A stretch of 64,000 bases of DNA from Escherichia coli. Its GTDB lineage: Bacteria > Pseudomonadota > Gammaproteobacteria > Enterobacterales > Enterobacteriaceae. The position numbers and the translations under genes were made by a program. The notes below the pieces were generated by a model. That model made no database searches. It worked only from the letters and a program-made list of their open reading frames with translations, and was not told where the DNA came from. The stretch lies in NCBI RefSeq assembly GCF_003790525.1, contig NZ_CP033636.1. One strand, written 5' to 3'. Below are positions 1,913-46,318 of this stretch, piece by piece; positions within the stretch are counted from its first letter, which is position 1, and each line of letters opens with the position of its first letter.

Positions 1913-1937
1913 AAAAAAAAGGCACGGAAACCGTGCC
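1913..1937 (-). terminator. putative intrinsic terminator closing the long minus-strand operon
   Basis: GGCACGG-AAA-CCGTGCC hairpin (1921-1937) adjacent to A8 run on plus strand, i.e. hairpin followed by U8 on the minus-strand transcript, 40 nt downstream of the stop of the 1977-2939 gene. Confidence 0.55.
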
Positions 1938-1976: not shown

Positions 1977-2939
1977 TCAAGCAGCTTGTGAAACTGAATC
2001 TCCAACTGCAAGATTTAAATTTCTTAGGTTATCGAAAACTTCAGATACTAAGTCATTACGGTCGTGGATTTTAATCCGCCCACCGGTTAACTCTGAAACA
2101 TAAACGGTATGGCAGAGGTCAGTAACCACTTCGCCGTATTCATCAACGACTTCCAAAGATGCAATCATCGGAATATAAGAAGCCGCAGCATAGCTCTCAT
2201 AAATACTTATTATGGAGTCATTGTTGCGTCGAGAAATTACCCTACCAGAAGGTAAAGCCTCATCTTCCATATAGCAATCAGATAGGTCCTCACAGAAGTC
2301 ATTTTCTTTAAGTGAAATATTAAGGGTCAATTCACTGTTGATAGAGCGTGAATAAGAATATTCACTCAGTTTATAGCAAGCCAAACTAATATCACTAAAA
2401 GTTTCATAAGCTTTATAGAGGCTCGATGTTATAGACTCAGATACAAATGTTATTAGTCCAATAAAATGAGTATCCCAGAACTGTTGCAAAGCAAAACGGG
2501 CAATCATAACCTGACCATCAACCTGCATCAGTCTGTTATATTCATCCCGGTCATAACCTTTCGACTGAGAAACATCATTAGACATGCTAAGAACTTCACT
2601 ACAAACATCATCATATTCAAAACGACTAGTTGCAAAGTGTTTTCCTGAAATTTCAAGGTACTGACCAGAGACTGCGTCAAACACCTCAAGAAAGTAACAG
2701 AGTCGCGATTTTAAAGATTCTCTGTTTAAAGCTTCTATTTCATTCTCAGAGATACTATCGACATATAAATCAACAACATTCTTGAGTTCAATAGCTTTGA
2801 TATTACAGGTAAAAGAAAGCTCGTCACTTTGACAATGGCAAACACTTAATACTATATCCGCCTCATCAAAATCTATGCCAAGATAACTCAGAACTGCTCG
2901 GACATAGTTTTTATCATCAGATGAATGTGTCATATACAC
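1977..2939 (-). CDS. hypothetical protein, member A of tandem ~300-aa paralog family
   Basis: ORF track 320 aa; shares clear sequence blocks with the next gene upstream (VDGQVMIARFALQQFWDTHF vs VDGKVLVAKFALKQFFHSDF; DRNDLVSEVFDNLRN vs DRTLLITEAFDDFRN). Confidence 0.6.
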   Translation of the reverse strand: MYMTHSSDDKNYVRAVLSYLGIDFDEADIVLSVCHCQSDELSFTCNIKAIELKNVVDLYVDSISENEIEALNRESLKSRLCYFLEVFDAVSGQYLEISGKHFATSRFEYDDVCSEVLSMSNDVSQSKGYDRDEYNRLMQVDGQVMIARFALQQFWDTHFIGLITFVSESITSSLYKAYETFSDISLACYKLSEYSYSRSINSELTLNISLKENDFCEDLSDCYMEDEALPSGRVISRRNNDSIISIYESYAAASYIPMIASLEVVDEYGEVVTDLCHTVYVSELTGGRIKIHDRNDLVSEVFDNLRNLNLAVGDSVSQAA

Positions 2940-3104
2940 TACCTCGAATTTGAGAGGAAGTGCCCCAGAAGGGAAGCGACTTCCCCACTGGGTTAGATAA
3001 AAATTTGGTTAAGCTAAAAGAAGATGCCAGCGACAGATTTTACATTGTCATAGACAAGTGTCTTCAGCCAACCAAAGTTACTTTTTTGGACTGAAGCAAA
3101 AGGA

Positions 3105-4043
3105 TCATTGAGACGCGTTACGAAAATCGTCAAAAGCTTCAGTTATTAGTAATGTGCGATCAGTTACTCTGTATCGGTCATTACTTTCGAGAGATACGTA
3201 AGTTGAATGCGAAGAATCACAGACAACACGCCCTCTTTTATTGATCAATCTTACTTCCATCATCACCGGCACATTGATAATTGAAGCAACATCGGTATAG
3301 AGGGATATGAGGGCATCATTGTCACAATATAACGCCCCGTTCCCATCAAATGTATCGTTAAACTTAATATATATATCTGGCATATTTGCCGGATAATCAT
3401 CAGTATTGAAATCAATGCATAACTTTAAGTCATCATTAATACGGCGATTAATCTTATGCTGCCCTACACGTACAAAGCCATGTTCAACAGCTTTGATAAT
3501 CCTTAAAGTTTCATTAAGACAATCTGTAATTCTTTTCTCGACAAATGAGATAAAGTCACCAAAGTCGGAATGAAAAAACTGTTTAAGTGCAAATTTCGCA
3601 ACTAACACTTTCCCATCCACCTTCATTTTATCGAGATAAAGATTTCTTATAGCATCAGTAGAAGAATTAGCTTTAGATAACTCTTCACAGTCATTAATAA
3701 TCATTGAAACAATATCAATAACTTTAACTGGGCTTAAAGTATTACTATATCCGCGAATATCAAACGTAAAAAATCCGAAATTCTTAAATACTCCAAGAAA
3801 ATAAATTATTTTTTGTTTCAAAAGAATAGAATCGGAGTAAGATGCGTTGTGCTTTATTAGCTCAGATATGTAGAGATCCAACATACAATTTAAATTATCG
3901 ATATCTACATCGTAATCAAAGGTTACTTTGTCGAACGAAGTATCAGATAATTGAACGGTTATATCGTCAGCGGAAACATTAAGGCCTAAATTTTGATAAA
4001 GAAAGGCACTAACAAATTCCACGTGGTCAGATTCTTTAAACAT
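3105..4043 (-). CDS. hypothetical protein, member B of tandem ~300-aa paralog family
   Basis: ORF track 312 aa; paralogous to 1977-2939 (see shared blocks). Confidence 0.6.
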   Translation of the reverse strand: MFKESDHVEFVSAFLYQNLGLNVSADDITVQLSDTSFDKVTFDYDVDIDNLNCMLDLYISELIKHNASYSDSILLKQKIIYFLGVFKNFGFFTFDIRGYSNTLSPVKVIDIVSMIINDCEELSKANSSTDAIRNLYLDKMKVDGKVLVAKFALKQFFHSDFGDFISFVEKRITDCLNETLRIIKAVEHGFVRVGQHKINRRINDDLKLCIDFNTDDYPANMPDIYIKFNDTFDGNGALYCDNDALISLYTDVASIINVPVMMEVRLINKRGRVVCDSSHSTYVSLESNDRYRVTDRTLLITEAFDDFRNASQ

Positions 4044-4061
4044 TTACACTACCTCATGACT

Positions 4062-4106
4062 AAAAAGGAAGTGCTTCCCACCGGGAAGCAGGTTCCCGGA
4101 TGGGTT
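4062..4106 (-). terminator. intergenic compound GC hairpin (putative terminator/attenuator)
   Basis: Nested inverted repeats CCCATCCGGGAA...TTCCCGGTGGG and GGAAG..CTTCC with A5 on plus strand = U5 after hairpin on minus transcript; lies between stop of 4110-5030 and start of 3105-4043. Confidence 0.4.
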
Positions 4107-4109
4107 AGA

Positions 4110-5030
4110 TTAATTATAAAAGAGTTCTTCAGAAGGTACATGCATTTCTGGTTTGAACTGTTTTAAGGAGTTGTTTATAGCTTTTCGATATAACCCTGAA
4201 GAGTGTGGCTTAAACATTTGATATTCCGTAACGAGCAGAGGAGACGTAAAGCATCCTAAGTTCACTAGTGAAATACTTGATGTTTCTTCACAAACATCTA
4301 ATTCAGCGTATATCCGCCTCTTCATTACCCTGCCTGCTAAATAGCGACGAACATGATTTATAAACTTGTCCGCATCTGATATAGAATTAACTATATAATC
4401 AGATGTGACTATCTGATTAGATACAGTTTCAGGTATAGCTTCGGCTATTATTTTTACGTTCATTTCATAATCAACACTATGGAAGCAAGCAAGAATTTGT
4501 GGCTTCGCGCTTTCTAAAATCTTTTCAAGAACAGAAAAAATCAGAGAGAACTCGTTTAAAATTCGCTTTTGTATAAGTCCATGTAGATGTTTTATGAAAG
4601 GAGAACCGTGTTCAACAAGGCCTAGTATAAGATCCTTAGAGGCCAAATCTGAGCGGTAATAAACGTATTCTAGATTATCCCGGTTAAATCCTTTGAAAAG
4701 CAAATCAGGCTGCTCTGAGACCAGTCGTAAATGAGTTGAAGCTATAGAAACTTCAAAACGAAAGTTCGCGAGATTTACAGGACCTGCTTTTAATGTAGCC
4801 GCTTCGGAAAAATAAATGAAAAGAGGATGCAAATCATCGTTACCACTGTAAAGATGGTCTGCACCCTTAAGATATTTCACCAAATGAGGTAGAAAAGATA
4901 TTACTGGAATATCAGCCACAAATCGAATATGCCGAAATGGTTTTGAATCCAAATATATATTTTCCACTACAGCGCCAACAAAACCCATTTTAACAAGAAT
5001 AGATTCAACTAACTTTTGTATAGCATTCAT
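4110..5030 (-). CDS. hypothetical protein (~300-aa family, divergent member)
   Basis: ORF track 306 aa; N-terminal motif KLVESILVKMG resembles N-termini of the 5099-6049 and 6105-6983 products. Confidence 0.55.
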   Translation of the reverse strand: MNAIQKLVESILVKMGFVGAVVENIYLDSKPFRHIRFVADIPVISFLPHLVKYLKGADHLYSGNDDLHPLFIYFSEAATLKAGPVNLANFRFEVSIASTHLRLVSEQPDLLFKGFNRDNLEYVYYRSDLASKDLILGLVEHGSPFIKHLHGLIQKRILNEFSLIFSVLEKILESAKPQILACFHSVDYEMNVKIIAEAIPETVSNQIVTSDYIVNSISDADKFINHVRRYLAGRVMKRRIYAELDVCEETSSISLVNLGCFTSPLLVTEYQMFKPHSSGLYRKAINNSLKQFKPEMHVPSEELFYN

Positions 5031-5098
5031 TTCAATACCCTCTTAATAGAGGGATTTCTCCCATAGGGAGAAATCCCTATGGGAGAAAATAATTTTAA

Positions 5099-6049
5099 TT
5101 AATAATTATAGCGAAGCGCATGTTCTTTTTCACTAAGATGGTTTTCATATTCCGACTTACCAGAACTTAAACACTCTTTGAAAAAGACCTTTGAAAAATT
5201 CTTCAAGTCACTTCGGTTATTAATTTCTTTGTCAGACATCAACTTAGCTGAGTGTGAGGTATCAACAGGCCCCAACCACCATTCATATTTAATATAAACA
5301 CAATTGGTTTGTGTATGTCCATTTAGAAATCGTTTTGCATTTCTAAGTATTTTTCTACAACCGTTAAGGTCTGAAAGTAAGATATCTGGAGCAATGAGCT
5401 CTTCCAGAATATGACCAGGTAAGCCTTTCCTAAAAAGCTCAACATCGTAACTACAATACCAGTCACGATAATTAAAAGCTTTAATAAGTCTTTCAGGTGT
5501 ATCCAAAGATATCTTATTCAGGATTTTTAATGCAAAGCATACAGCATCTTTTAACAACTCGTGCACCTCAACATTGATAAATGAGAAAAACGAGCTTAAT
5601 TCTTTCTCTAAGGAATTATACAACTTACCGTAAATATCCTGAGAAAAAAGATACTGCAATCTTTCTTTATTATAAGTGCAATTCGAAATTGAATAGACTT
5701 CTCCTCTTTCGATTTTGCACCCTTCCCTTAAAACTATAGGAAACCTCAAATGGTTAACAAAGAAAGAATGATTCTTTCTTTGCTTCAAAGCATCTAATTG
5801 AAATTTCGTAATTTCCTCCAGATTTGCATCTTCAAAACCTGGAAAGGGAATATCACAGAAACAAGAACTATATGCTTTTGCTGATTCATACATAAACTCC
5901 AGTGAAACATCAGCATCAAAAGACATACCAGAGAACATGCCCTGCCCATTGTCTAAAAATGTAATGTTTTTAACCTGTATTTTTTTATGTTGAACAACCA
6001 AAAAGGCATTAATGATTTTTTCGATAATTTTCATGTGATCCTCTCTCAA
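5099..6049 (-). CDS. hypothetical protein (~300-aa family, divergent member)
   Basis: ORF track 316 aa; N-terminal KIIEKIINAFLV motif; true start may be the internal Met at residue 6. Confidence 0.55.
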   Translation of the reverse strand: MREDHMKIIEKIINAFLVVQHKKIQVKNITFLDNGQGMFSGMSFDADVSLEFMYESAKAYSSCFCDIPFPGFEDANLEEITKFQLDALKQRKNHSFFVNHLRFPIVLREGCKIERGEVYSISNCTYNKERLQYLFSQDIYGKLYNSLEKELSSFFSFINVEVHELLKDAVCFALKILNKISLDTPERLIKAFNYRDWYCSYDVELFRKGLPGHILEELIAPDILLSDLNGCRKILRNAKRFLNGHTQTNCVYIKYEWWLGPVDTSHSAKLMSDKEINNRSDLKNFSKVFFKECLSSGKSEYENHLSEKEHALRYNY

Positions 6050-6050
6050 T

Positions 6051-6094
6051 AAAAAAAGGGATCACTCCCATATGGGGTGTGATCCCCACATGGG
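6051..6094 (-). terminator. intergenic compound GC hairpin (putative terminator/attenuator)
   Basis: GGGATCAC...GTGATCCC and CCCATATGGGG inverted repeats preceded by A7 on plus strand (U7 after hairpin on minus transcript). Confidence 0.4.
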
Positions 6095-6104
6095 TATAAT
6101 TTAA

Positions 6105-6983
6105 TTAAAAATCTGTAAGACCTAAATCTTTATTTCTACCACAAACTGTAGAAGATATAAGACGTTTTACTCGCTTTCGAGCACTTCGGCCTGACGTATC
6201 TTTCAAGTACATCGGTAATGACAATGATGAAATTTGATTACTTCGCTTATGATGGCAGACTATATAGCCCTGCCTCCACCCCGAACGCACAAACTCACGG
6301 ATGCGGTTAATATATGCCGAAGCTTGAGATTTTGTACTTATCGATTCAGAACACTTTAAGTTCTGTTCGATAGAGTAAAGCTCAGCCGCCATGAATTTCA
6401 CCTCATACAGCTCATCGCCATAACTTATAGTTTTCAACAGCTCTTCCTTTTCCCGAATGAAAAATACTTGCTGCATTCCAAGGATCAGGTCATAGGCCTC
6501 TCGAAAGAGGTCGATAAGCTTATTACGAACATAAATCATAAACTCCTCAAAGTGCTGAAGCCAGAAATAAGCCGCATTACTTATTTGTGAATTGTGAGAA
6601 CAAACAAGCCCTTTAGCAAGCTCGACCTCTTCCTCCCGAAAAGTAAAGTTACTTTTCTTAAACCGACTTTGTTCAAAAATGCTTTGATGCATTTCTATCC
6701 ATACAGAAACAAAACCGAGGGATTCAAATTCTTCGTTTAACAAATGTAAACTTTCGAAGATTTTCTGAATTTCGATCCCGATGTCATATGACAGTGGACA
6801 TTCTTTTATAGAATAAACATAACCGGGTAGGAAGTGAGATAAATGCTCAGTTCGCAAATATAAACTGAATTTAAGTTCTGTCAGTGGTTGTTTCAAAGAT
6901 AACTTAGATGATTCGCTTATATTTACTGGTTCAACGCCATTTCTAATCAAAATAGCTTTTACCAGGTCCGTAGCTAACTTCAT
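6105..6983 (-). CDS. hypothetical protein (~300-aa family, divergent member)
   Basis: ORF track 292 aa; N-terminal DLVKAILIRNGV motif shared with neighbours. Confidence 0.55.
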   Translation of the reverse strand: MKLATDLVKAILIRNGVEPVNISESSKLSLKQPLTELKFSLYLRTEHLSHFLPGYVYSIKECPLSYDIGIEIQKIFESLHLLNEEFESLGFVSVWIEMHQSIFEQSRFKKSNFTFREEEVELAKGLVCSHNSQISNAAYFWLQHFEEFMIYVRNKLIDLFREAYDLILGMQQVFFIREKEELLKTISYGDELYEVKFMAAELYSIEQNLKCSESISTKSQASAYINRIREFVRSGWRQGYIVCHHKRSNQISSLSLPMYLKDTSGRSARKRVKRLISSTVCGRNKDLGLTDF

Positions 6984-7061
6984 ACAGCCTCCATTCGTTA
7001 TTGAGGCCTCCCTGATGCAGGTTGGCCATCAGGGAAAATATGTAAATCAATTAGCAATCAA

Positions 7062-7583
7062 TCAGACCGTTGCCATGACATTGTCAATGTATCTGACAAG
7101 GGATGGGCGGTCGTCCTGTAAGGCAAAACGGCGAAGGTCATCAAGATTATACGCAGGAAGATAATCAGCGTAACCTCGAATACGAAGGTCCTCAACCACA
7201 ACTTTTATATACTCAAATCGTCCAAGATTCCCTTTTAATGGGGGTTTTCCTGGACTAGACAGCATATCGTCTGCTTGCTCCCATGTGATTTCTTTAGCTT
7301 CACCACTATGTAGATCAAGATGGACATATATGAATGACTTATAATCTCCACGGCAACGAAGATAATATTTCGGATAGAAATATTTGTCACAACGCAACAA
7401 ACACGTTCCTGAAGGACGAACTACGTACAACAGGTTTCTGTCATTTTCTAATATGCTATGTTTCAAAATCGTTATATCTATCTCATTATCATGCAGCAAA
7501 TAGCATGACGATGGTTCATTGACGATGCGCGATTTTATAACAGCAGCAAATTTATTAAAAACTTCGTTAATTTGAAAATTCAT
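7062..7583 (-). CDS. hypothetical protein (173 aa)
   Basis: ORF track; within the co-directional gene string; no motif recognised. Confidence 0.5.
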   Translation of the reverse strand: MNFQINEVFNKFAAVIKSRIVNEPSSCYLLHDNEIDITILKHSILENDRNLLYVVRPSGTCLLRCDKYFYPKYYLRCRGDYKSFIYVHLDLHSGEAKEITWEQADDMLSSPGKPPLKGNLGRFEYIKVVVEDLRIRGYADYLPAYNLDDLRRFALQDDRPSLVRYIDNVMATV

Positions 7584-7774
7584 TAAAATGCTCTCCGATG
7601 TAAAACGACGAGCATCACCATAACGGTAATACTCCCGTTATGGGTTTTAATAGTTTATGGAATAACCATGTCATACAACCGACCATAGCCAGTAGTACCG
7701 CACATTTATTTAACTGAGCAAGCATCTCAGCCGTGAAAAGACCTTAAAGGCAGGTAATTATCACGAAGGAAAGC

Positions 7775-7822
7775 GGTTATCTTATCAATACAATTTTAAA
7801 ATATAATATTGATAAGATAACC
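7775..7822. promoter_or_regulatory. perfect 16-bp inverted repeat (GGTTATCTTATCAATA / TATTGATAAGATAACC) with 16-nt AT-rich spacer; candidate operator or structured site
   Basis: Read directly from sequence at 7775-7790 and 7807-7822; sits between primase stop (7854) and the next gene start (7583). Confidence 0.35.
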
Positions 7823-7841
7823 CCCCCCGCAAAAAGCGGGG
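7823..7841 (-). terminator. putative intrinsic terminator after primase gene
   Basis: CCCCCGC-AAAAA-GCGGGGG hairpin directly downstream of the 7854-9158 stop codon on the minus strand. Confidence 0.45.
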
Positions 7842-7853
7842 GAGTTATCGTTG

Positions 7854-9421: not shown

Positions 9422-9448
9422 ATTTTGCTCCTTATTCCTTCATGGAGC

Positions 9449-9485
9449 AAAAAGACCCACCGGGGCCTTTTGCCCCGATTGGGTA
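9449..9485 (-). terminator. intergenic GC hairpin (putative terminator/attenuator)
   Basis: CCCACCGGGGC...GCCCCGATTGGG imperfect inverted repeat with A5 on plus strand side. Confidence 0.35.
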
Positions 9486-9492
9486 GAGTTTA

Positions 9493-11505: not shown

Positions 11506-11520
11506 AGAATACCTCTTTAT

Positions 11521-11567
11521 AAAAAAGGGGTACTCACCCAGATGGTGAAGTACCCATCTGGGGTTTT
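11521..11567 (-). terminator. intergenic compound GC hairpin (putative terminator/attenuator)
   Basis: GGGTACTCACC / GGTGAAGTACCC and CCCAGATGG / CCATCTGGG inverted repeats; A6 on plus strand = U6 after hairpin on minus transcript, just upstream of next RBS. Confidence 0.4.
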
Positions 11568-11582
11568 TAATAAAGCAAACAG

Positions 11583-12710: not shown

Positions 12711-12720
12711 GGGTTTCTCC

Positions 12721-12770
12721 AAAAAAAAGGGGAAACCCTCCCCAACGGGAAAGATTTCCCGATAGGGTTG
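12721..12770 (-). terminator. intergenic compound GC hairpin (putative intrinsic terminator)
   Basis: GGGGAAACCCTCCCC and CGGGAAAGATTTCCCG hairpins; A8 on plus strand = U8 following hairpin on minus transcript. Confidence 0.45.
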
Positions 12771-13078
12771 ATATTAAAGCTTCTCTGGTGAAATTAAAAG
12801 AATACCGGGAAACTCAGCAACAACATCATCATTGCCCATTGCTCCCTGATACATATAACCTTTTAATTCCATTTGTTTAATCAGACCTTCCATATTTATT
12901 TTACCATCATGATAAAACAATAAAGAATAGTCGTTATTCAGTTGCATAAGTCCAGTAAAATTAGTTCCGTTTTTTGCTATAGCAATGGTAGCAGCACCAT
13001 CCGTACTTAAAAACGCACTAAATTCAAGATGGGATAACTCTGAGATACAAATATCAGAGGTTTCATAACAAATCCCAT

Positions 13079-15610: not shown

Positions 15611-15667
15611 TTTCCGCTCCTCGATTTGTTCAAAGAGAAGCCCCGTTAGGGTTCCCCCTTAACAGGA

Positions 15668-38550: not shown

Positions 38551-39800
38551 GCGTTAACTCCTTGCTTAGCTGAAAAACTTTTTATTTCATTTATAAATTG
38601 TTGATATACCTGTAATACAGATTCTTCTGCGACATCAAGTTGCTTTGCGGAACAAAGTTCCTCTGATTTTTTGATATCAAGCACTGTACGCCCTTTGGAA
38701 GCAGCTGCCTTAAATGCTTCAGAATTTTTTATGTTAGCGGACATCAAAAGGTCCTGAACAGTTCTGATTAATTTATCCAAAACTATTCTTTCATATGGAC
38801 TTTTGTCATCAACATTGACAGCAAGAACTTTGAACCATTTTAAATTATCGCCCTTACTTGGTGATTGTTTAAACCTTTCACTTATTGTAAGCATGAAGTC
38901 TGTAGTAGAGGCGTAATCATATTCACGTGGTGACACTGCGACAAGAATCCCATCGGCCGCTTCGTCAGCAGCCCAGATCAAAGGTGAATCTTCAGGTGGA
39001 GTGTCTATAATAATCAAATCATAGTTCTGCTTCAGTACCGGTAAGATAACTTCCTTGAAACGTAGTAACAAAGACGTTCGTTCTTCTCTAGAACATTGCC
39101 AGTATTTATCTTTAAAACGAGCATCTGTCGGAAATGCCGTTATCACGTCCAAGTTTGGCAGATGCGTTGAAAAAGGCATATTAGTGATGATTTCTTCTTC
39201 AGAGAATCCTGAATCTAAATATTTTTTATACTCAGAATTTTCTTCATAAATTCCAAGGATTGCATCAATTGCTGTAAGGAAGACATCATCTTCTGAGACA
39301 CTTTGAATCATGCTGCTTCCAATCGAACCTTGTGGGTCCCATTCGATCATTAATACACGTGCATTCAGTTGTAGATCTAAAGCAGCTGCTACTGCTAAAG
39401 CTACAGATGTAGTGCTTTTCCCTGTACCGCCTTTATGATTCTGAGTAACAATAGCTCTGCTAAAGTAATGATCGCGGTACTTGGGATAACCCAGGGCATC
39501 CATTATTTTTTGAACATCCCAGCGGGTGTAAAGATGATTTTTGTTTTGATAAATAGGTGCACCAACAACTTCTTTTTCTTCTAAGTCCGAAAGTATTTTA
39601 TTGAACGTTACTCGTGACTTCCCAAAAAAATCAGAGAGATTTTTTTTATTTAAACAGTGGTTGTAGATCAGTCTATCAACACCATCAACACTATCATCAG
39701 AAACAGATACTCTTGATGAAGCCATCAGAGATTCCTTAAGAGAAATCTGCTCGCTTTTCATGCGCTGACCAACGAGGGCGATCTTTTCAAGTAAATTCAT
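38547..39800 (-). CDS. parA: ParA/SopA-family partition ATPase (type Ia, long N-terminal extension)
   Basis: ORF track 417 aa; deviant Walker A KGGTGKSTT, ~110-aa N-terminal extension typical of SopA/P1 ParA-type proteins. Confidence 0.85.
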   Translation of the reverse strand: MNLLEKIALVGQRMKSEQISLKESLMASSRVSVSDDSVDGVDRLIYNHCLNKKNLSDFFGKSRVTFNKILSDLEEKEVVGAPIYQNKNHLYTRWDVQKIMDALGYPKYRDHYFSRAIVTQNHKGGTGKSTTSVALAVAAALDLQLNARVLMIEWDPQGSIGSSMIQSVSEDDVFLTAIDAILGIYEENSEYKKYLDSGFSEEEIITNMPFSTHLPNLDVITAFPTDARFKDKYWQCSREERTSLLLRFKEVILPVLKQNYDLIIIDTPPEDSPLIWAADEAADGILVAVSPREYDYASTTDFMLTISERFKQSPSKGDNLKWFKVLAVNVDDKSPYERIVLDKLIRTVQDLLMSANIKNSEAFKAAASKGRTVLDIKKSEELCSAKQLDVAEESVLQVYQQFINEIKSFSAKQGVNA

Positions 39801-39868: not shown

Positions 39869-40199
39869 ATTTCATTGTTATACGTACAATTCTATCCTTT
39901 GTTTCAATCCTAAGCTAATGTTTGTTTACTTTTTTATGATTTTTTGTGAGCTTAACTTGCAGATGAGAGCTCAGACTCTCTAGTCCATACCTAATGCTCA
40001 TTCTTTTTAAACCACGATTCTTGTCGACTTCTCTACGCTTTGACGTTATGAGCTCCATTAATGAATCTTCACGCCTACCCTATTTCTTGCTTAGACCCTA
40101 AAATCTATCTCACCGGTGTGCTGATTTACGTTTCCTAACTGTGAATCGTTGTCGTCAGTCCAGTCTAAAGATATGAGGTGTTAATCTCTTGAGTAGGCC

Positions 40200-43100
40200 C
40201 ACTACGAATTATGGGAGCAGAGTTAGCAACCTAGCCCAGAACTGAAACCCAACTTCAGGAGGCAACCCCAGTGTGGCGATTAAGGGGGTTAAATCTGCCA
40301 GCGGCTGACAGTGTCCTAGCTGCTGCTCAGTCACACCACGCCCTGATTAAATCTCCTGCCCGGTATTGTAAGGACCGAAAAAAGCCCGTGCATTTGTGTC
40401 GGCAGACCGGCATGAAGGAATATGACGTTAATCTGTATCAGCAGGCACTTTTCGCATGATGGGAGCAAGTGATAGCAACCCCGCCCAGAACGGAAGGCCA
40501 GCATCAGGACAAAACCCAAGTTTGGCGATTAAGGGGGTTAAATTTGCAAGCGGATGACAGTGCCCCAGCTGCTGCTCAGTCACACCACGCCCTGAGTAAA
40601 TCTCTCGCCAGGTCTTGTTATGACCGAAAATAGCCCAAGCACTGGTGTCGGCAGACCGGCATACAGGAATATGACGTTAATCTGTATCAGCAGATACATT
40701 TCGCATTATGGGAGCAAGAGATAGCAACCCAGCCCAGAACTGAAGGCCAGCATGAGGACAGAACACCAGTTTGGCGATTAAGGGAGTTAAATATGCAAGC
40801 TGCTGATAGTGCCCCAGCTCCTGCTCAGTAACACCACGCCCTGATAAAATCTCCTGCCCGGTAATGTAATGACCGAAAAAAGGCCGTGCACTGGTGTCGG
40901 CAGACCGGCACGCAGGAAAATGACGTTAATCTGTATTAACAGACACATTTCGCATTAGGGGAGCAAGTGATAGCCACCCAGCCCAGAACTGAAGGCCAGC
41001 ATCAGGACAGTACCCCAGTTTGGCGATTAAGGGGGTTAAATCCGCCAGTGGCTGTAAGTGCCCGAGCGGTGTATAAGAAATATTTCCCGAAGGACAATCT
41101 TTCGCTCGTACGATGAATAAAGTGTTCAACCCGGGAGCGGGGATCACTTAACCTGCTTAGCCTAAATCTTACGTCATTCTCTAAACGGAGTTTAAGCTTA
41201 ATGGTCCTTAGAAAGTTAAAAGGACTACCCATAATGACGTCTTGAGATGGCGAATAAAGGGTTTTAATCTGCCAGCGGCTGACAGTGCCCCAGCTTCTGC
41301 TCAGTCACACCACGCCTGATTAAATCTCCCGCCAGGTCTTATTATGACCGAAAATAGTCCCCGTGCACTAGAGTCGTAAGACCGGCATACAGGAATGAAG
41401 CTTAAATCTTTATCAGGTTGCAAGGTTCGCATCATGGGAGCAAGGGCCTTGAACTGTAGGTTAACATCAGAAAATCCCAGATTGGCGATTAAGGGGGTTA
41501 AATCTGACAGCGACTGAAAGTGCCTTCAGATGCTGCTCAGGTATATTACAACCTGAAAAAATCAAGCGTCTGTTCATGCGAATATCGAAAAAAGCTATGC
41601 ACCAGTTTCGGCAGACCGGCATGGAGTAATGAGACGTTAATCTGTATCAGCTGGCGCATTTCGTATCATGGGAGCAAGTGTTAGCAACCCTGCCCAGGAC
41701 GGAAGGACACTATCAGGACTGATCCCAGTTTGGAGATTAAGGGGGTTAAATCTGCCAGTGGCTGACAGAGCCTTCTGATGCTGCTCAGACATACTATGCA
41801 ACGATAAAATCACCCGTCCGTCCTTGTGATTATCGGAAAAAGCCATGCACCGGAGTCGGCAGATCGGTATGCAGTAATGTGACTTTAATCTGTATCAGCA
41901 GGCGCAATGGGAGCAAGTGTTAGCAACCGAGCCCAGGACGGAAGGACACTATCAGGACTGAACCCCAGTGTGGCGATTAAGGGGGTTAAATCTGCAAGCG
42001 GATAACAGTGCCCCAGCTGCTGCTCAGTCACACCACGCCCTGATTAAATCTCTCGCCAGGTCTTGTTAGGACCGAAAATAGCCCGAGCACTGGTGTCGGC
42101 AGACCGGCATACAGGAATACGACGTTAATTTGTATCAGCAGGTACATTTCGCATTATGGGAGCAAGTGATAGCAACCCAGCTCAGAACTGAAGGCCTGCA
42201 TGAGGACAGAACACCAGTTTGGCGATTAAGGGGGTTAAATCTGACAGCGGCTGACAGTGCCTTCAGATGCTGCTCAGGCATACTACTCTCCCTGATATAA
42301 TCTCCCATATGTTCTTGAGATCGTCGGAAATCGCCCATGCACCGGTGTCGGCAGACCGGTATGCAGTAATGTGATTTTAATCTGTATCAGCAGGCACATT
42401 TCGTATCATGGGAGTAAGTGTTAGCAAACCGAACCCCGCCCAGCACGGAAGGTCAATATCAGACCAGAATCCCAGTTTGGCGATTAAGGGGGTTAAATCT
42501 GCAAGCTGCTGACAGTGCCCCAGCTTCTGCTCAGTCACACCACGCCCTGATAAAATCTCCTGCCCGGTAATGTGATGACCGAAAAAAGCCCGTGCACTGG
42601 TGTTGGCAGACCGGCACGCAGGAATATGACGTTAATCTGTATCAGCAGTTACATTTCGCATTATGGGAGGAAGTGATAGCCACCCAGCCCAGAACTGAAG
42701 GCCAGCATCAGGACAGTACCCCAGTTTGGCGATTAAGGGGGTTAAATCCGGCAGCGGCAGTAAGTGCCCGTGCTGTGTTAAAGGAATATTTCCCTAAGGA
42801 CAATCTTCCGATCGGCCTTTTGTATAAAGTGGTCACCCCGGGAGCGGGGATCACTTTACCTGCTTAGCCTAAATCTTACGTCAATCACTATCCGGAATTT
42901 TAGCTTAATGGTCCTGAGCAAGTTAAAAGGGGTACCCCTAATGACGTCCCCAGATGGCGATAAAGGAGTTAATTCCGCCTTCGGCTTACAGTGCCGCAGC
43001 TGCTGCTAAGGAACACCACGCCCTGATTAAATCTCCCGCCTGGCCTTGTGATGACCAAAAATTGTCCGTGCACTGGCGTCGTAAGACCGGCATACAGGAA

Positions 43101-43636: not shown

Positions 43637-46318
43637 CTACGCGGCCAAACCCGCTGCTACTTCTTGAGCATAGAGAATTTCTATTGCCTCGCCATAGCTA
43701 CAATTCTCGCGGCTTTGAATTTCCCATAATTTACTCCTGTCAGCACTATCCGTAGTAAAACAAAGCTCCATTTTCCGGTCTACGTATAACCGACAGATCT
43801 CTTGGAAGTTTTCGAACCTGACTAACATCTCTGAAAACACCTTTTTGACTGTACGAATATTTTTCATTCGTTCATATTCTGCATCTGAAGTAGAAAAATA
43901 TTTATTAGCCTTCATTGCTTCAATGCTTTCTTTTTCTTGTTTCATGATTATCTTCCAAGGCGAGTTAGCAGTCAGGGCCCGGCCAACAGAAGAAGTAAAA
44001 TAATCTTCAAACGACTGTGTGATACAGATGCCAGCGCAGTTTGTTTTCCTGAACCTACGCCATGCCGCTTCGAGGAAGGAAGAGAAGAATTGGTTTGATT
44101 GATTTCCGGCACCTGATGAATTATCAGGACGAATGTACTCCCAAGCTTCATCTAGGATGAACAAGCGACGACGCCCATCTTTTTTGATGAACATTGCATG
44201 CTGAGCAGCCTGAATGATAGACATTAAAACAACTGTCTGAAGGTGGGGGGTGCCTTTTAGCTCCTCCAGTTCCAAAACAATAAATCTGCTGTCGAAGTTG
44301 ATTGGAGGCAACGTATCGGTAAACCGGTGCCCATAAATTCCACCTTCGCACCATGCTCCGAGTTGCTCCCCAATATCCTTTATACGTTTGTCTTCATGCT
44401 TCTTGCAACGCAGAGCAAAGCCGGTTATTGAACCGGTCCGACCTGATTTTCTGGATTCCTGGTACTCTTCTGCAATAAGCTGAAGCATCACTGATTGTTG
44501 ATAATCATCGATAAGGCCTTTCTCTGAAGCCATAATTTTTAGCTGATTCAGAACCATTATGGTCTGAGCAACTTTGTCTTTTTCTGCATCGTTTGAAGTT
44601 GATTCACCGGTAAATTCAGGTGCTTCGTTAAATACATCGTCGTTAACAGTGATGTCAGTTAGGAAGGCAAAGGGATTTAGGGTGAAGTCAGGGGTTTTAC
44701 CGAAATCAATAAATTGACTGTTTGTATATTGTTCCGCAATCCCCTGGTAAGAACGCCCCACGTCCACTACAAAAACTTGAGCACCATCAGGATCATCATC
44801 TGGGTATTCGTTTTCTAAAAAATGCTTAAATGTTGAGCGATAATGAACGAGGTTATTAGATCGCGGTCCAGCTCCAAGATAGTTATTGATTAGATATGCT
44901 GTCCAGAATGACTTGCCTGCACCTGACGTTGCACCAATAACCATGTTATAGCTTGCAGAAGTCTTGAAAATATCAAGTCCCATGAGTTGACCTTCACGAG
45001 AAACTAAACTCAGTACTGGTCTATCTGTATTACCTTTCCAGGGCCCAAAGATCGGCGTCATATGAGCCGCTCCGGTGTTGCTCACTACTTCGGATCGGTC
45101 AAGGTCGAAAATTGTCTTTGGGTCATTGCACATTGGCAGACATGACATAAATGACGGGAAAACGATAAAGGAATCATCTGCTACTTTGACCCGGCTTTCG
45201 AGGTAAAAGGATTTGAGATCGTTAGCTGCTGTCTGCACAGAATTGGCATTACTACCCATAACAGTGAAAGTAAGATACCCTCTTAAAAGCTTTGCGCCAT
45301 CCTCAAGCTCGCGAGTTACGGCCATGTAGTCATTATCCATATCCCGCAGGCGAGGGCAGAATGTGACAACTGAAGGTATACTTGCCTGTTTATTAGTGAT
45401 TGCTTTGTAGCGGACGTTTTCTTTTGACAACTTGAGCGGATCGGCAAACTGAACAGTCTGAGTGATCATAAATGGGCTGAAAATTGTCTTACGTCCATGC
45501 ATCCAGTTAACTACTAACTCATACATACAACCGAAATTGACGTATTCAGGAAACTTTACAACGGAAAGTTGTTTGAAGTAACGATGCTCAGATTCGTCGT
45601 CACTTTGTGTGACTGATGAGAAATGATTTTCTGTGACTGTATACTTACGGCCGGGAACGTTAACTTGTTCATTAAGCCTTTTCATAGTGTTAACGTCTAT
45701 AAAACCTTCAGCCCACCGAGAGTTCTTTCCGGGGTTTACGACCTTATCTATACAATAGAGCCAGTTTTCTGCATCGACCTTAAACGGATGCAGTCCAATC
45801 GTAATTAACTTACTTACAAGTTCAGAGTAAAGTGAATCGATACGCGAATGTTCCAGCTCGGTAGGAAGGGCAGACTGTAAAGGAATCGATAGCGAGATCC
45901 ATACCTGAAAATCCCTCAACATAAGGTTATCATGATCAGGTTTTAAAGGCTTATGCATACTTCTGTCGTAGTAGTCCAACTGATAACCATTAAGCAGATC
46001 TGCTTTAAGCTTATCGTTCCCAGTCATACGCCCACCTCGCACAGCTGACCAAGCACTAAGCTGTAAAGTCAAGTCTGGCAATGCAGTCAGAGATATTTGA
46101 CAGACAGTATCTGTAGGAAAATCCATTTTGAACATTTCAGCAAGAACATCTTGCTGATTATCAAAAACTCCAGGTGATGGATTACAGATAAACATAAACC
46201 CTAATCTGTTGCCATCAATCAAAAAATAGTGAGTCCCTGCTAATTGATCGTAAACAGGGATAAACCCACCTAATTGATGGCGATTTAAACCGCTATTGTA
46301 ATTATTGATAGCTTCCAT
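43637..46318 (-). CDS. traC: TraC (VirB4-like) conjugative transfer ATPase
   Basis: ORF track 893 aa; Walker A GATSGAGKS, Walker B-like FILDEAW; size and position after traV typical of F-type TraC. Confidence 0.8.
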   Translation of the reverse strand: MEAINNYNSGLNRHQLGGFIPVYDQLAGTHYFLIDGNRLGFMFICNPSPGVFDNQQDVLAEMFKMDFPTDTVCQISLTALPDLTLQLSAWSAVRGGRMTGNDKLKADLLNGYQLDYYDRSMHKPLKPDHDNLMLRDFQVWISLSIPLQSALPTELEHSRIDSLYSELVSKLITIGLHPFKVDAENWLYCIDKVVNPGKNSRWAEGFIDVNTMKRLNEQVNVPGRKYTVTENHFSSVTQSDDESEHRYFKQLSVVKFPEYVNFGCMYELVVNWMHGRKTIFSPFMITQTVQFADPLKLSKENVRYKAITNKQASIPSVVTFCPRLRDMDNDYMAVTRELEDGAKLLRGYLTFTVMGSNANSVQTAANDLKSFYLESRVKVADDSFIVFPSFMSCLPMCNDPKTIFDLDRSEVVSNTGAAHMTPIFGPWKGNTDRPVLSLVSREGQLMGLDIFKTSASYNMVIGATSGAGKSFWTAYLINNYLGAGPRSNNLVHYRSTFKHFLENEYPDDDPDGAQVFVVDVGRSYQGIAEQYTNSQFIDFGKTPDFTLNPFAFLTDITVNDDVFNEAPEFTGESTSNDAEKDKVAQTIMVLNQLKIMASEKGLIDDYQQSVMLQLIAEEYQESRKSGRTGSITGFALRCKKHEDKRIKDIGEQLGAWCEGGIYGHRFTDTLPPINFDSRFIVLELEELKGTPHLQTVVLMSIIQAAQHAMFIKKDGRRRLFILDEAWEYIRPDNSSGAGNQSNQFFSSFLEAAWRRFRKTNCAGICITQSFEDYFTSSVGRALTANSPWKIIMKQEKESIEAMKANKYFSTSDAEYERMKNIRTVKKVFSEMLVRFENFQEICRLYVDRKMELCFTTDSADRSKLWEIQSRENCSYGEAIEILYAQEVAAGLAA

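Follow-up and report, generated by a model that had tools for sequence, protein, structure and literature searches.

We examined a tandem array of five genes, here termed A to E, in a stretch of 64,000 nucleotides (the 64-kb window) from Escherichia coli contig NZ_CP033636.1 (assembly GCF_003790525.1), which belongs to the backbone of an IncHI2 resistance plasmid. A sequence-only reading of the window had described five paralogous open reading frames (ORFs) of about 300 amino acids there, and all five are present, on the minus strand, with a smaller gene, F, lying 5′ of them (Table 1); RefSeq labels all six products 'hypothetical protein'. For A and D, the RefSeq starts (2933 and 6034, respectively, taken from identical plasmids) differ from the longest-ORF starts (2939 and 6049). 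The 5.2-kb array region matched 1,124 plasmid records, 1,111 of them at at least 99% identity; these records were typed as IncHI2A with MPF_F and came from Escherichia, Salmonella, Enterobacter, Klebsiella and other hosts.

All five genes go back to ancient tandem duplications and encode members of a single orphan protein superfamily. Blocks common to A and B, and an N-terminal motif common to C, D and E, had been singled out in the sequence-only reading and were found in the translations, and comparisons of whole proteins and of profiles (BLASTP, hhalign and cross-scoring of models) bore out its proposal that one ancestral gene was repeatedly duplicated in tandem and diverged. For these comparisons, a profile was built for each array position from the orthologous arrays of eight further loci (IncHI1 pHCM1, pCFR-eb27 and six metagenomic or genomic contigs). 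A and B share 27% identity over 309 amino acids (BLASTP E value 2 × 10−37; hhalign 100%, E value 6 × 10−60), and C and D are linked more distantly (BLASTP E value 5 × 10−5; hhalign 95.7%, E value 8 × 10−9). Protein E had no significant BLASTP match to A–D, but its profile aligned both with A+B (hhalign 75.8%, E value 2 × 10−5, residues 6–198 against 9–209) and with C+D (93.5%, E value 2 × 10−7), and C and E were matched at 60%; all of these alignments, including that of C with D, were colinear from the N terminus. Local hmmsearch scores with hidden Markov models (HMMs) were calibrated against 989 decoys (window ORFs and shuffled family members), among which the maxima were 7–9 bits, or 11.9 bits for one merged leave-one-out model. 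The A+B HMM scored 15–26 bits against the seven closest E sequences (3–5 bits against the two most divergent), the C+D HMM scored 10–21 bits against E, the E HMM scored up to 20 bits against A and 13–14 bits against B, C and D, and the C+D+E HMM scored up to 28 bits against B. Cross-family scores of 13–28 bits, set against these decoy maxima, make E a genuine intermediate and A–E one superfamily. The expected profile similarity thus emerged for A with B, for C with D and for E with either pair, but not for A+B compared directly with C+D (hhalign 1%, not significant), so that five-way homology rests on E as the intermediate and on structure models. A neighbour-joining tree resolved two clades, (A, B) and (C, D, E), with one gene of a minimal two-gene array (see below) branching basally in the A/B clade and the other in the E clade. 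The E family also carries an almost invariant motif, NRLISSTxxGRNxDLGLxDF, at its very C-terminal end, which the other four families lack.

Structure prediction, which the sequence-only reading had put forward as a check for a common fold, gave models with a shared order of elements. AlphaFold2 models cover A (modelled alone, using the A+B alignment) and C and E (modelled as one chain through a Gly-Ser linker, D sequences being aligned under C). Confidence was high for A (mean predicted local distance difference test (pLDDT) 89, predicted template modelling score 0.82); in the joint model, pLDDT was ~80–93 for most of residues 1–240 of C, with a dip to 56 near residues 100–110, and ~70–85 throughout E. 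All three models run from an N-terminal helix through a β-hairpin, two helices, one or two strands (a clear β-hairpin in A only), two helices and a central helical stretch of ~45 residues (unbroken in A and E, split into three consecutive helices in C) to a further β-hairpin, and A and E have in common a C-terminal part of helix, three strands and terminal helix. The proteins are therefore modelled as sharing an α/β architecture, with a helical and hairpin-containing N-terminal part and a β-rich C-terminal half that ends in a helix. In Foldseek searches of the AlphaFold database (AFDB50), the A model ranked A and B orthologs first, and the C+E model retrieved C, E and D-like entries together with an A-family entry (A0A381KN38; E value 2.3 × 10−4, template modelling (TM) score 0.59 on the target).

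The protein sequences, for their part, suggest soluble, non-catalytic proteins of ~300 amino acids. None of the five has a hydrophobic segment or a predicted membrane segment, and membrane or secreted proteins were rejected on that ground. In charge they differ: the A/B pair is acidic, the C/D pair close to neutral and E basic (Table 1). Across a superfamily alignment of 42 sequences, the only near-invariant columns are A10, L12, L48 and Y55 (E numbering), all hydrophobic or aromatic, which speaks against a common catalytic site; this alignment contains no conserved polar residue, and enzymes were accordingly rejected as candidates.

All members of the superfamily found so far lie on backbones of IncHI-type conjugative plasmids from Enterobacterales. 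Curated collections yielded no NCBIfam match for A–E, PHROG matches only at E values of 0.005 or above, no Pfam match for any of the 42 members and no PADLOC-DB family at an E value of 1 or below for A–E, F or the downstream ORFs; scans of the downstream ORFs against the other three collections were equally unproductive, and three family profiles found nothing below an E value of 0.1 among PDB sequences. Word-indexed homolog searches returned close IncHI relatives only. An exhaustive search of 1.84 billion representative proteins with a five-family profile (the 42 sequences; E value 0.001 or below) gave 68 matches, ~30 of them full length, each of which fell cleanly into A/B, C, D or E, with no relatives outside these families. 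In all genomic contexts examined, the genes occupied the same IncHI-like slot, between Toprim/F and a Tus-like gene. The only possible outside relatives are structural neighbours of the A model, none of which was detected by the exhaustive profile search: uncharacterised ~300-amino-acid proteins of Enterobacterales (Dickeya, Brenneria, Photorhabdus, Serratia, Pectobacterium, Salmonella and Klebsiella; for example, A0A5B8HP55 from Dickeya, A0A421DJK9 from Brenneria, A0A6L9JU38 from Photorhabdus and A0AAJ1YHK3 from Serratia, and also A0AAE9NQL1) that resemble A in length and predicted fold (E values 10−9 to 10−5, TM scores 0.60–0.65) at 10–13% sequence identity. A Klebsiella protein annotated 'NgrC' (A0AAN2CGC7), for which we found nothing in the literature, matched the A model (TM score 0.51) and the C+E model too, and a 708-amino-acid DUF1738 (ArdC N-terminal) protein (A0A5Y2S904) matched the A model more weakly (TM score 0.37). 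Beyond these, the models weakly resemble small α+β binding proteins, including inhibitor and immunity proteins; among the closest systems are the Rhs immunity protein TriX (8s2m), the T7 dGTPase inhibitor Gp1.2 (7u65), class I type III secretion chaperones (3kxy, 3epu and 1s28) and VirB8-like proteins (4o3v and 5i97). A–E matched ArdA and Ocr neither in sequence nor in fold; the DNA-mimic anti-restriction proteins of this type share acidity with A and B, but C, D and E are neutral to basic and the five therefore do not fit that class.

All five positions have orthologs in IncHI1 plasmids, with order and slot unchanged, so the duplications predate the split between IncHI1 and IncHI2. Between the two groups, A–E orthologs share 45–64% protein identity, compared with 70–80% for F, Toprim and DUF3150 and 63% for VWA, and the array genes thus diverge somewhat faster than the backbone. 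Copy number varies among related plasmids, with two, four or five genes in the same slot: a Lelliottia plasmid type (L003 and L010) has the four-gene array E-C-B′-A, without D; another distant backbone has D′-C-A′-A/B″, without E; and the most divergent lineage has two genes only, E′-A/B′. No near-identical DNA of these diverged two- and four-gene arrays was found in PLSDB. On an IncHI-like backbone from Photorhabdus tasmaniensis (contig L004, 8812–10552), decay of the array has left one B fragment and two A fragments. Where arrays are present, the ORFs are intact and of conserved length across lineages, and gene-wide ratios of non-synonymous to synonymous substitution rates (dN/dS; Nei–Gojobori) between close lineages were 0.13–0.30 for A–E, except for E in L003/L010 (0.39); those of flanking genes were mostly 0.00–0.26 (up to 0.81 for orf73, a 73-amino-acid ORF). 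This indicates gene-wide purifying selection on all five copies.

Published data on the IncHI1 plasmid R27 place these genes in a regulatory context. R0198–R0202 of R27 and their pHCM1 equivalents are direct orthologs of A–E, identical in order and slot: R0198 is an N-terminal fragment of A, which is split by an insertion sequence (IS), IS2, in R27 and intact in the IncHI2 window, and R0199, R0200, R0201, R0202, R0203 and R0204 correspond to B, C, D, E, F and Toprim, respectively, as fixed by R27 coordinates and by Tassinari et al. (2016, PMC4853401, Table S2). They appear in the literature only as ORFs of unknown function; we found no report that R0198–R0202 are paralogs of one another, nothing relevant on the RefSeq protein accessions of the array or on DUF3150, and no discussion of the array genes in an IncHI comparative-genomics preprint. 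In the microarrays of Gibert et al. (2020, PMC7366339), wild-type R27 gave no signal above the detection limit for the array orthologs at either 25 or 37 °C. In the derepressed htdA mutant at 25 °C, R0198–R0203 rose 38-, 97-, 52-, 107-, 102- and 116-fold (PMC7366339, Tables S3 and S4), among the largest changes shown for that mutant, and at 37 °C R0198–R0202 stayed off (signal of 64 or below; Table S4). The block R0198–R0210 shared one common expression pattern, and the downstream genes R0183–R0192 were constitutive (PMC7366339). The R27 orthologs are therefore members of the HtdA/TrhR–TrhY thermoregulated block that is transcribed with the transfer genes, and orthology suggests that the IncHI2 array belongs to the same regulon. 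Deletion data may also bear on the array: of the 19 deletions designed to cover the non-essential parts of R27, only deletion 18 (168,601–175,050, removing B, C, D, E, F, Toprim and orf73) was not obtained, and deletions 17 (including the A fragment) and 19 (VWA to R0210) were made and left stable plasmids (PMC4853401). The authors gave no interpretation of this failure (PMC4853401), which may have a technical cause; we take it as a hint that the array matters.

A second layer of control is suggested by the spacers between the genes. Every intercistronic spacer from ~15.6 kb down to A ends in two adjacent hairpins (Table 1): the first, GC-rich and of the form CCCnnnnGGG-loop-CCCnnnnGGG, lies just after the upstream stop codon, and the 3′ arm of the second holds the Shine–Dalgarno (SD) sequence of the next gene. 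This bipartite module precedes at least ten consecutive cistrons; it is also found 5′ of every array gene in IncHI1 and four other lineages (loci L006, L008, L003, L013 and L018), with structure kept and sequence differing. All 28 upstream segments tested folded into exactly two hairpins, with spacer z-scores of −2.3 to −8.3. In several cases, the first hairpin bears a near copy of the SD arm (5′ of D, GGGGATCAC and GAGGATCAC in IncHI2 and, likewise, GGGGATTACA and GAGGATTACA in IncHI1), which gives the anti-SD strand two possible partners. Because the hairpin pair occludes the ribosome-binding site of each cistron, translation of the array cistrons is probably also controlled, as judged from predicted folding. 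Within the 64-kb window, the strict motif was confined to these spacers, matches in Rfam all fell below threshold and RNAalifold recovered only four pairs from a MAFFT alignment of the modules, an alignment that was not in structural register. SD-containing hairpins are known from RNA thermometers and translational-coupling stem-loops, and GC-rich post-stop stem-loops from REP-like (repetitive extragenic palindromic) hairpins; the IncHI element differs from both in being bipartite, repeated before at least ten cistrons, conserved in structure only and without an Rfam match. Upstream of F, a structured leader of 270 nucleotides separates Toprim from the array (minimum free energy −99.8 kcal mol−1, z-score −8.3). 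Its nucleotide identity (80% to IncHI1 and 78% to the Lelliottia-type L003) exceeds that of both flanking coding sequences, and its conserved hairpins include eight pairs with compensatory changes; it could act as a promoter/operator, as a leader RNA or as a single-strand DNA element. The IncHI2 leader also contains a palindrome with 19-bp arms (GGTTATCTTATCAATA...TATTGATAAGATAACC).

Table 1. Genes and predicted RNA elements of the array region in the 64-kb window (z, z-score; aa, amino acids; pI, isoelectric point).
Feature	Coordinates	Strand	Remarks
Gene A	1977-2933	-	318 aa from RefSeq start, WP_046788424; longest ORF to 2939; A/B clade; pI 4.3
Gene B	3105-4043	-	312 aa; paralog of A; pI 4.8
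Gene C	4110-5030	-	306 aa; C/D/E clade
Gene D	5099-6034	-	311 aa from RefSeq start; longest ORF to 6049; absent from some related arrays
Gene E	6105-6983	-	292 aa; pI 8.2; sequence intermediate between A/B and C/D pairs
Gene F	7062-7583	-	173 aa; orphan unrelated to A-E; 5′ of array
Terminator-like hairpin with T run (intrinsic type)	1921-1937	-	3′ of A
Bipartite hairpin module 5′ of A	2936-2992	-	z -5.6 (whole spacer); second hairpin sequence resembles that 5′ of B
Bipartite hairpin module 5′ of B	4046-4104	-	z -4.2
Bipartite hairpin module 5′ of C	5038-5088	-	z -8.3; first hairpin a 15-bp perfect palindrome, 5055-5088
Bipartite hairpin module 5′ of D	6035-6094	-	z -7.3
Bipartite hairpin module 5′ of E	6986-7035	-	GC-rich CCCnnnnGGG-type hairpin, then SD hairpin
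Bipartite hairpin module 5′ of F	7587-7643	-	first module, within Toprim-F leader
Further modules upstream in gene train	9422-9492, 11506-11582, 3′ end of 12711-13078, 15611-15667	-	
Structured Toprim-F leader	7584-7853	-	270 nucleotides; Toprim terminator, several conserved hairpins, first bipartite module
Toprim terminator	7822-7844	-	strong; within Toprim-F leader

The array stands at the end of a long series of genes on the same strand: Tra2 genes (trhN, trhU, rsp and htdA), a UvrD-like helicase gene, three orphan genes and genes for an AAA_5 ATPase, DUF3150, VWA, orf73 and Toprim, followed by F and the array. F lies ahead of the array in all lineages that have kept the array intact and is probably the first cistron of the same transcription unit; it had no Pfam, NCBIfam, PHROG or PADLOC match and no similarity to A–E. 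The hairpin and T run 3′ of A are the probable end of this unit. Beyond lie small ORFs and genes for a Tus-like Ter protein, an integrase and Hha. The array (window positions 2001–7000) has the lowest GC content of the window (0.33–0.38, against 0.40–0.45 in the adjoining Toprim/VWA and Tra2 genes). Low GC content of this kind is typical of H-NS-silenced DNA, and IncHI-type plasmids with the low-GC array encode Hha and H-NS-like proteins. Elsewhere in the window, between a ParA-family gene (38547–39800) and a TraC-family (trhC-like) gene (43637–46318), a 249-bp unit is repeated in tandem ~10.6 times at positions 40180–42769 (70% matches, GC content ~0.49); this non-coding stretch, which has no long ORF, could be a partition or incompatibility repeat region.

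We propose that A–E are non-catalytic binding proteins of the conjugation regulon, acting as adaptors, chaperones or inhibitors, and put the probability of this reading at roughly 0.5. The proteins would be encoded downstream of the AAA-DUF3150-VWA-Toprim genes in one long same-strand gene train and made in the cytoplasm only in the transfer-competent state of the plasmid; each paralog would be specialised for a different partner, and the minimal set would comprise one E-type and one A/B-type protein. A bolder and rather doubtful extension is that the array encodes new IncHI-specific, conjugation-coupled effectors with an unseen fold (such as proteins that block recipient defences or host factors, or adaptors for export through the H-type transfer apparatus), whose synthesis would be gated twice, in transcription by HtdA/TrhR–TrhY and temperature and in translation by a bipartite RNA switch repeated 5′ of every cistron.

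Several observations weigh against our proposal. The expression data come from IncHI1 R27, another plasmid than that of the IncHI2 window. The effect of htdA is broad, with 139 of the 181 expressed R27 genes rising in the mutant (PMC7366339), and co-regulation on its own is therefore not specific. The C-terminal third of C, beyond residue 240, was modelled at low pLDDT. Natural IncHI1 and IncHI2 plasmids carry IS insertions of several types (IS1, IS2/IS3, IS5/IS903B and IS21) in the array, affecting A (in R27), B and the end of C: in the sample inspected (L019, L020, L021, H1–H7, H82, H83, H93, H100, H115 and H125), IS2 splits A in R27 (L019; NC_002305.1, 166237–168529), IS21 truncates B and IS5 clips C. 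In the Photorhabdus contig, only a short C fragment accompanies the A/B pieces, and F, E and D are undetectable, so that most of the array has been lost. Together, the IS insertions and the Photorhabdus loss imply that no single copy is essential.

Our ranking of the explanations begins with a conjugation-linked role as adaptor, chaperone or inhibitor, followed by an anti-defence role directed at the recipient and, third, by a fixed machine with the AAA, VWA and Toprim proteins. Under the second, which we consider unlikely, the five would be diversified anti-defence or establishment factors that neutralise restriction, other defences or host factors of a new host. A multi-paralog array of lineage-specific copy number that diverges faster than the backbone would suit such a role, as would the strong acidity of A and B, the weak resemblance of the models to inhibitor and immunity proteins (and of the A model to the DUF1738 protein), the expression of the R27 orthologs with conjugation and the highly structured, conserved leader upstream. 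However, PADLOC and Pfam gave no anti-defence match, dN/dS of 0.13–0.39 and near-identity across more than 1,100 IncHI2 plasmids are at odds with it, and the absence of the family from all other mobile elements among the 1.84 billion proteins searched would be unusual for anti-defence genes. Position is a further difficulty: the array adjoins Tra2, and R0198–R0202 are ~70 ORFs from the Tra1 genes R0121–R0126 in R27 numbering. Because the origin of transfer (oriT) is located in Tra1, the array is not obviously in the leading region. Leading-region anti-defence islands (Samuel et al. 2024, PMC11541004) likewise group orphan genes of small to medium size whose expression on conjugative plasmids is tied to transfer, but the IncHI array apparently lies outside the leading region, has no known anti-defence similarity and belongs to a family that is not shared with other plasmid groups.

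Somewhat less probable still is that A–E are subunits or accessories of one machine with the AAA_5 ATPase, DUF3150, VWA and Toprim proteins, serving transfer- or replication-linked DNA processing or priming. Invariant synteny on a common strand with these genes, the same hairpin module through the whole gene train (~15.6 kb to A), the single expression pattern of R0198–R0210, the conserved order of the paralogs and the failure to obtain the R27 deletion of R0199–R0205 all speak for such an assembly. A fixed complex is nevertheless difficult to reconcile with copy numbers of two to five and different paralogs missing per lineage, or with single copies that are interrupted in natural plasmids typed as conjugative; the failed deletion also takes out F, Toprim and orf73 and may have failed for technical reasons. 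The AAA-DUF3150-VWA-Toprim cluster occurs in other MOBH elements, unlike the array family, which the exhaustive search found only on IncHI-like backbones.

The sequence-only reading had suggested ongoing, conflict-driven diversifying selection, and the differences in copy number between lineages and a protein identity below that of neighbouring backbone genes are what such conflict might leave behind. We regard this as improbable: the substitution ratios that it had named as a test point to gene-wide purifying selection in every close pair, the duplications are old, with one-to-one orthology of all five positions between IncHI1 and IncHI2, and conservation within IncHI2 is near-clonal. That the genes are functionless remnants or mis-called ORFs, as their scant expression in wild-type R27 and the tolerated IS insertions might suggest, is effectively refuted: the ORFs are intact and keep their length across lineages, their dN/dS is far below 1, the prediction for A is confident and expression in the htdA mutant is strong and regulated.

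IncHI1 and IncHI2 plasmids rank among the main vehicles of multidrug, mcr-1 and typhoid resistance; for approximately two-thirds of their genes, no function is known. Five products labelled 'hypothetical protein' in ~1,400 sequenced plasmids can now be treated as one defined superfamily: its structural model is confident and without a PDB counterpart, its distribution is restricted and its regulatory setting is the low-temperature conjugation regulon. Independently of these proteins, the repeated hairpin module is a candidate for controlling a 14-kb operon after transcription. A–E are thus concrete candidates for aspects of IncHI biology that have lacked an explanation, such as thermosensitive transfer and establishment in new hosts.

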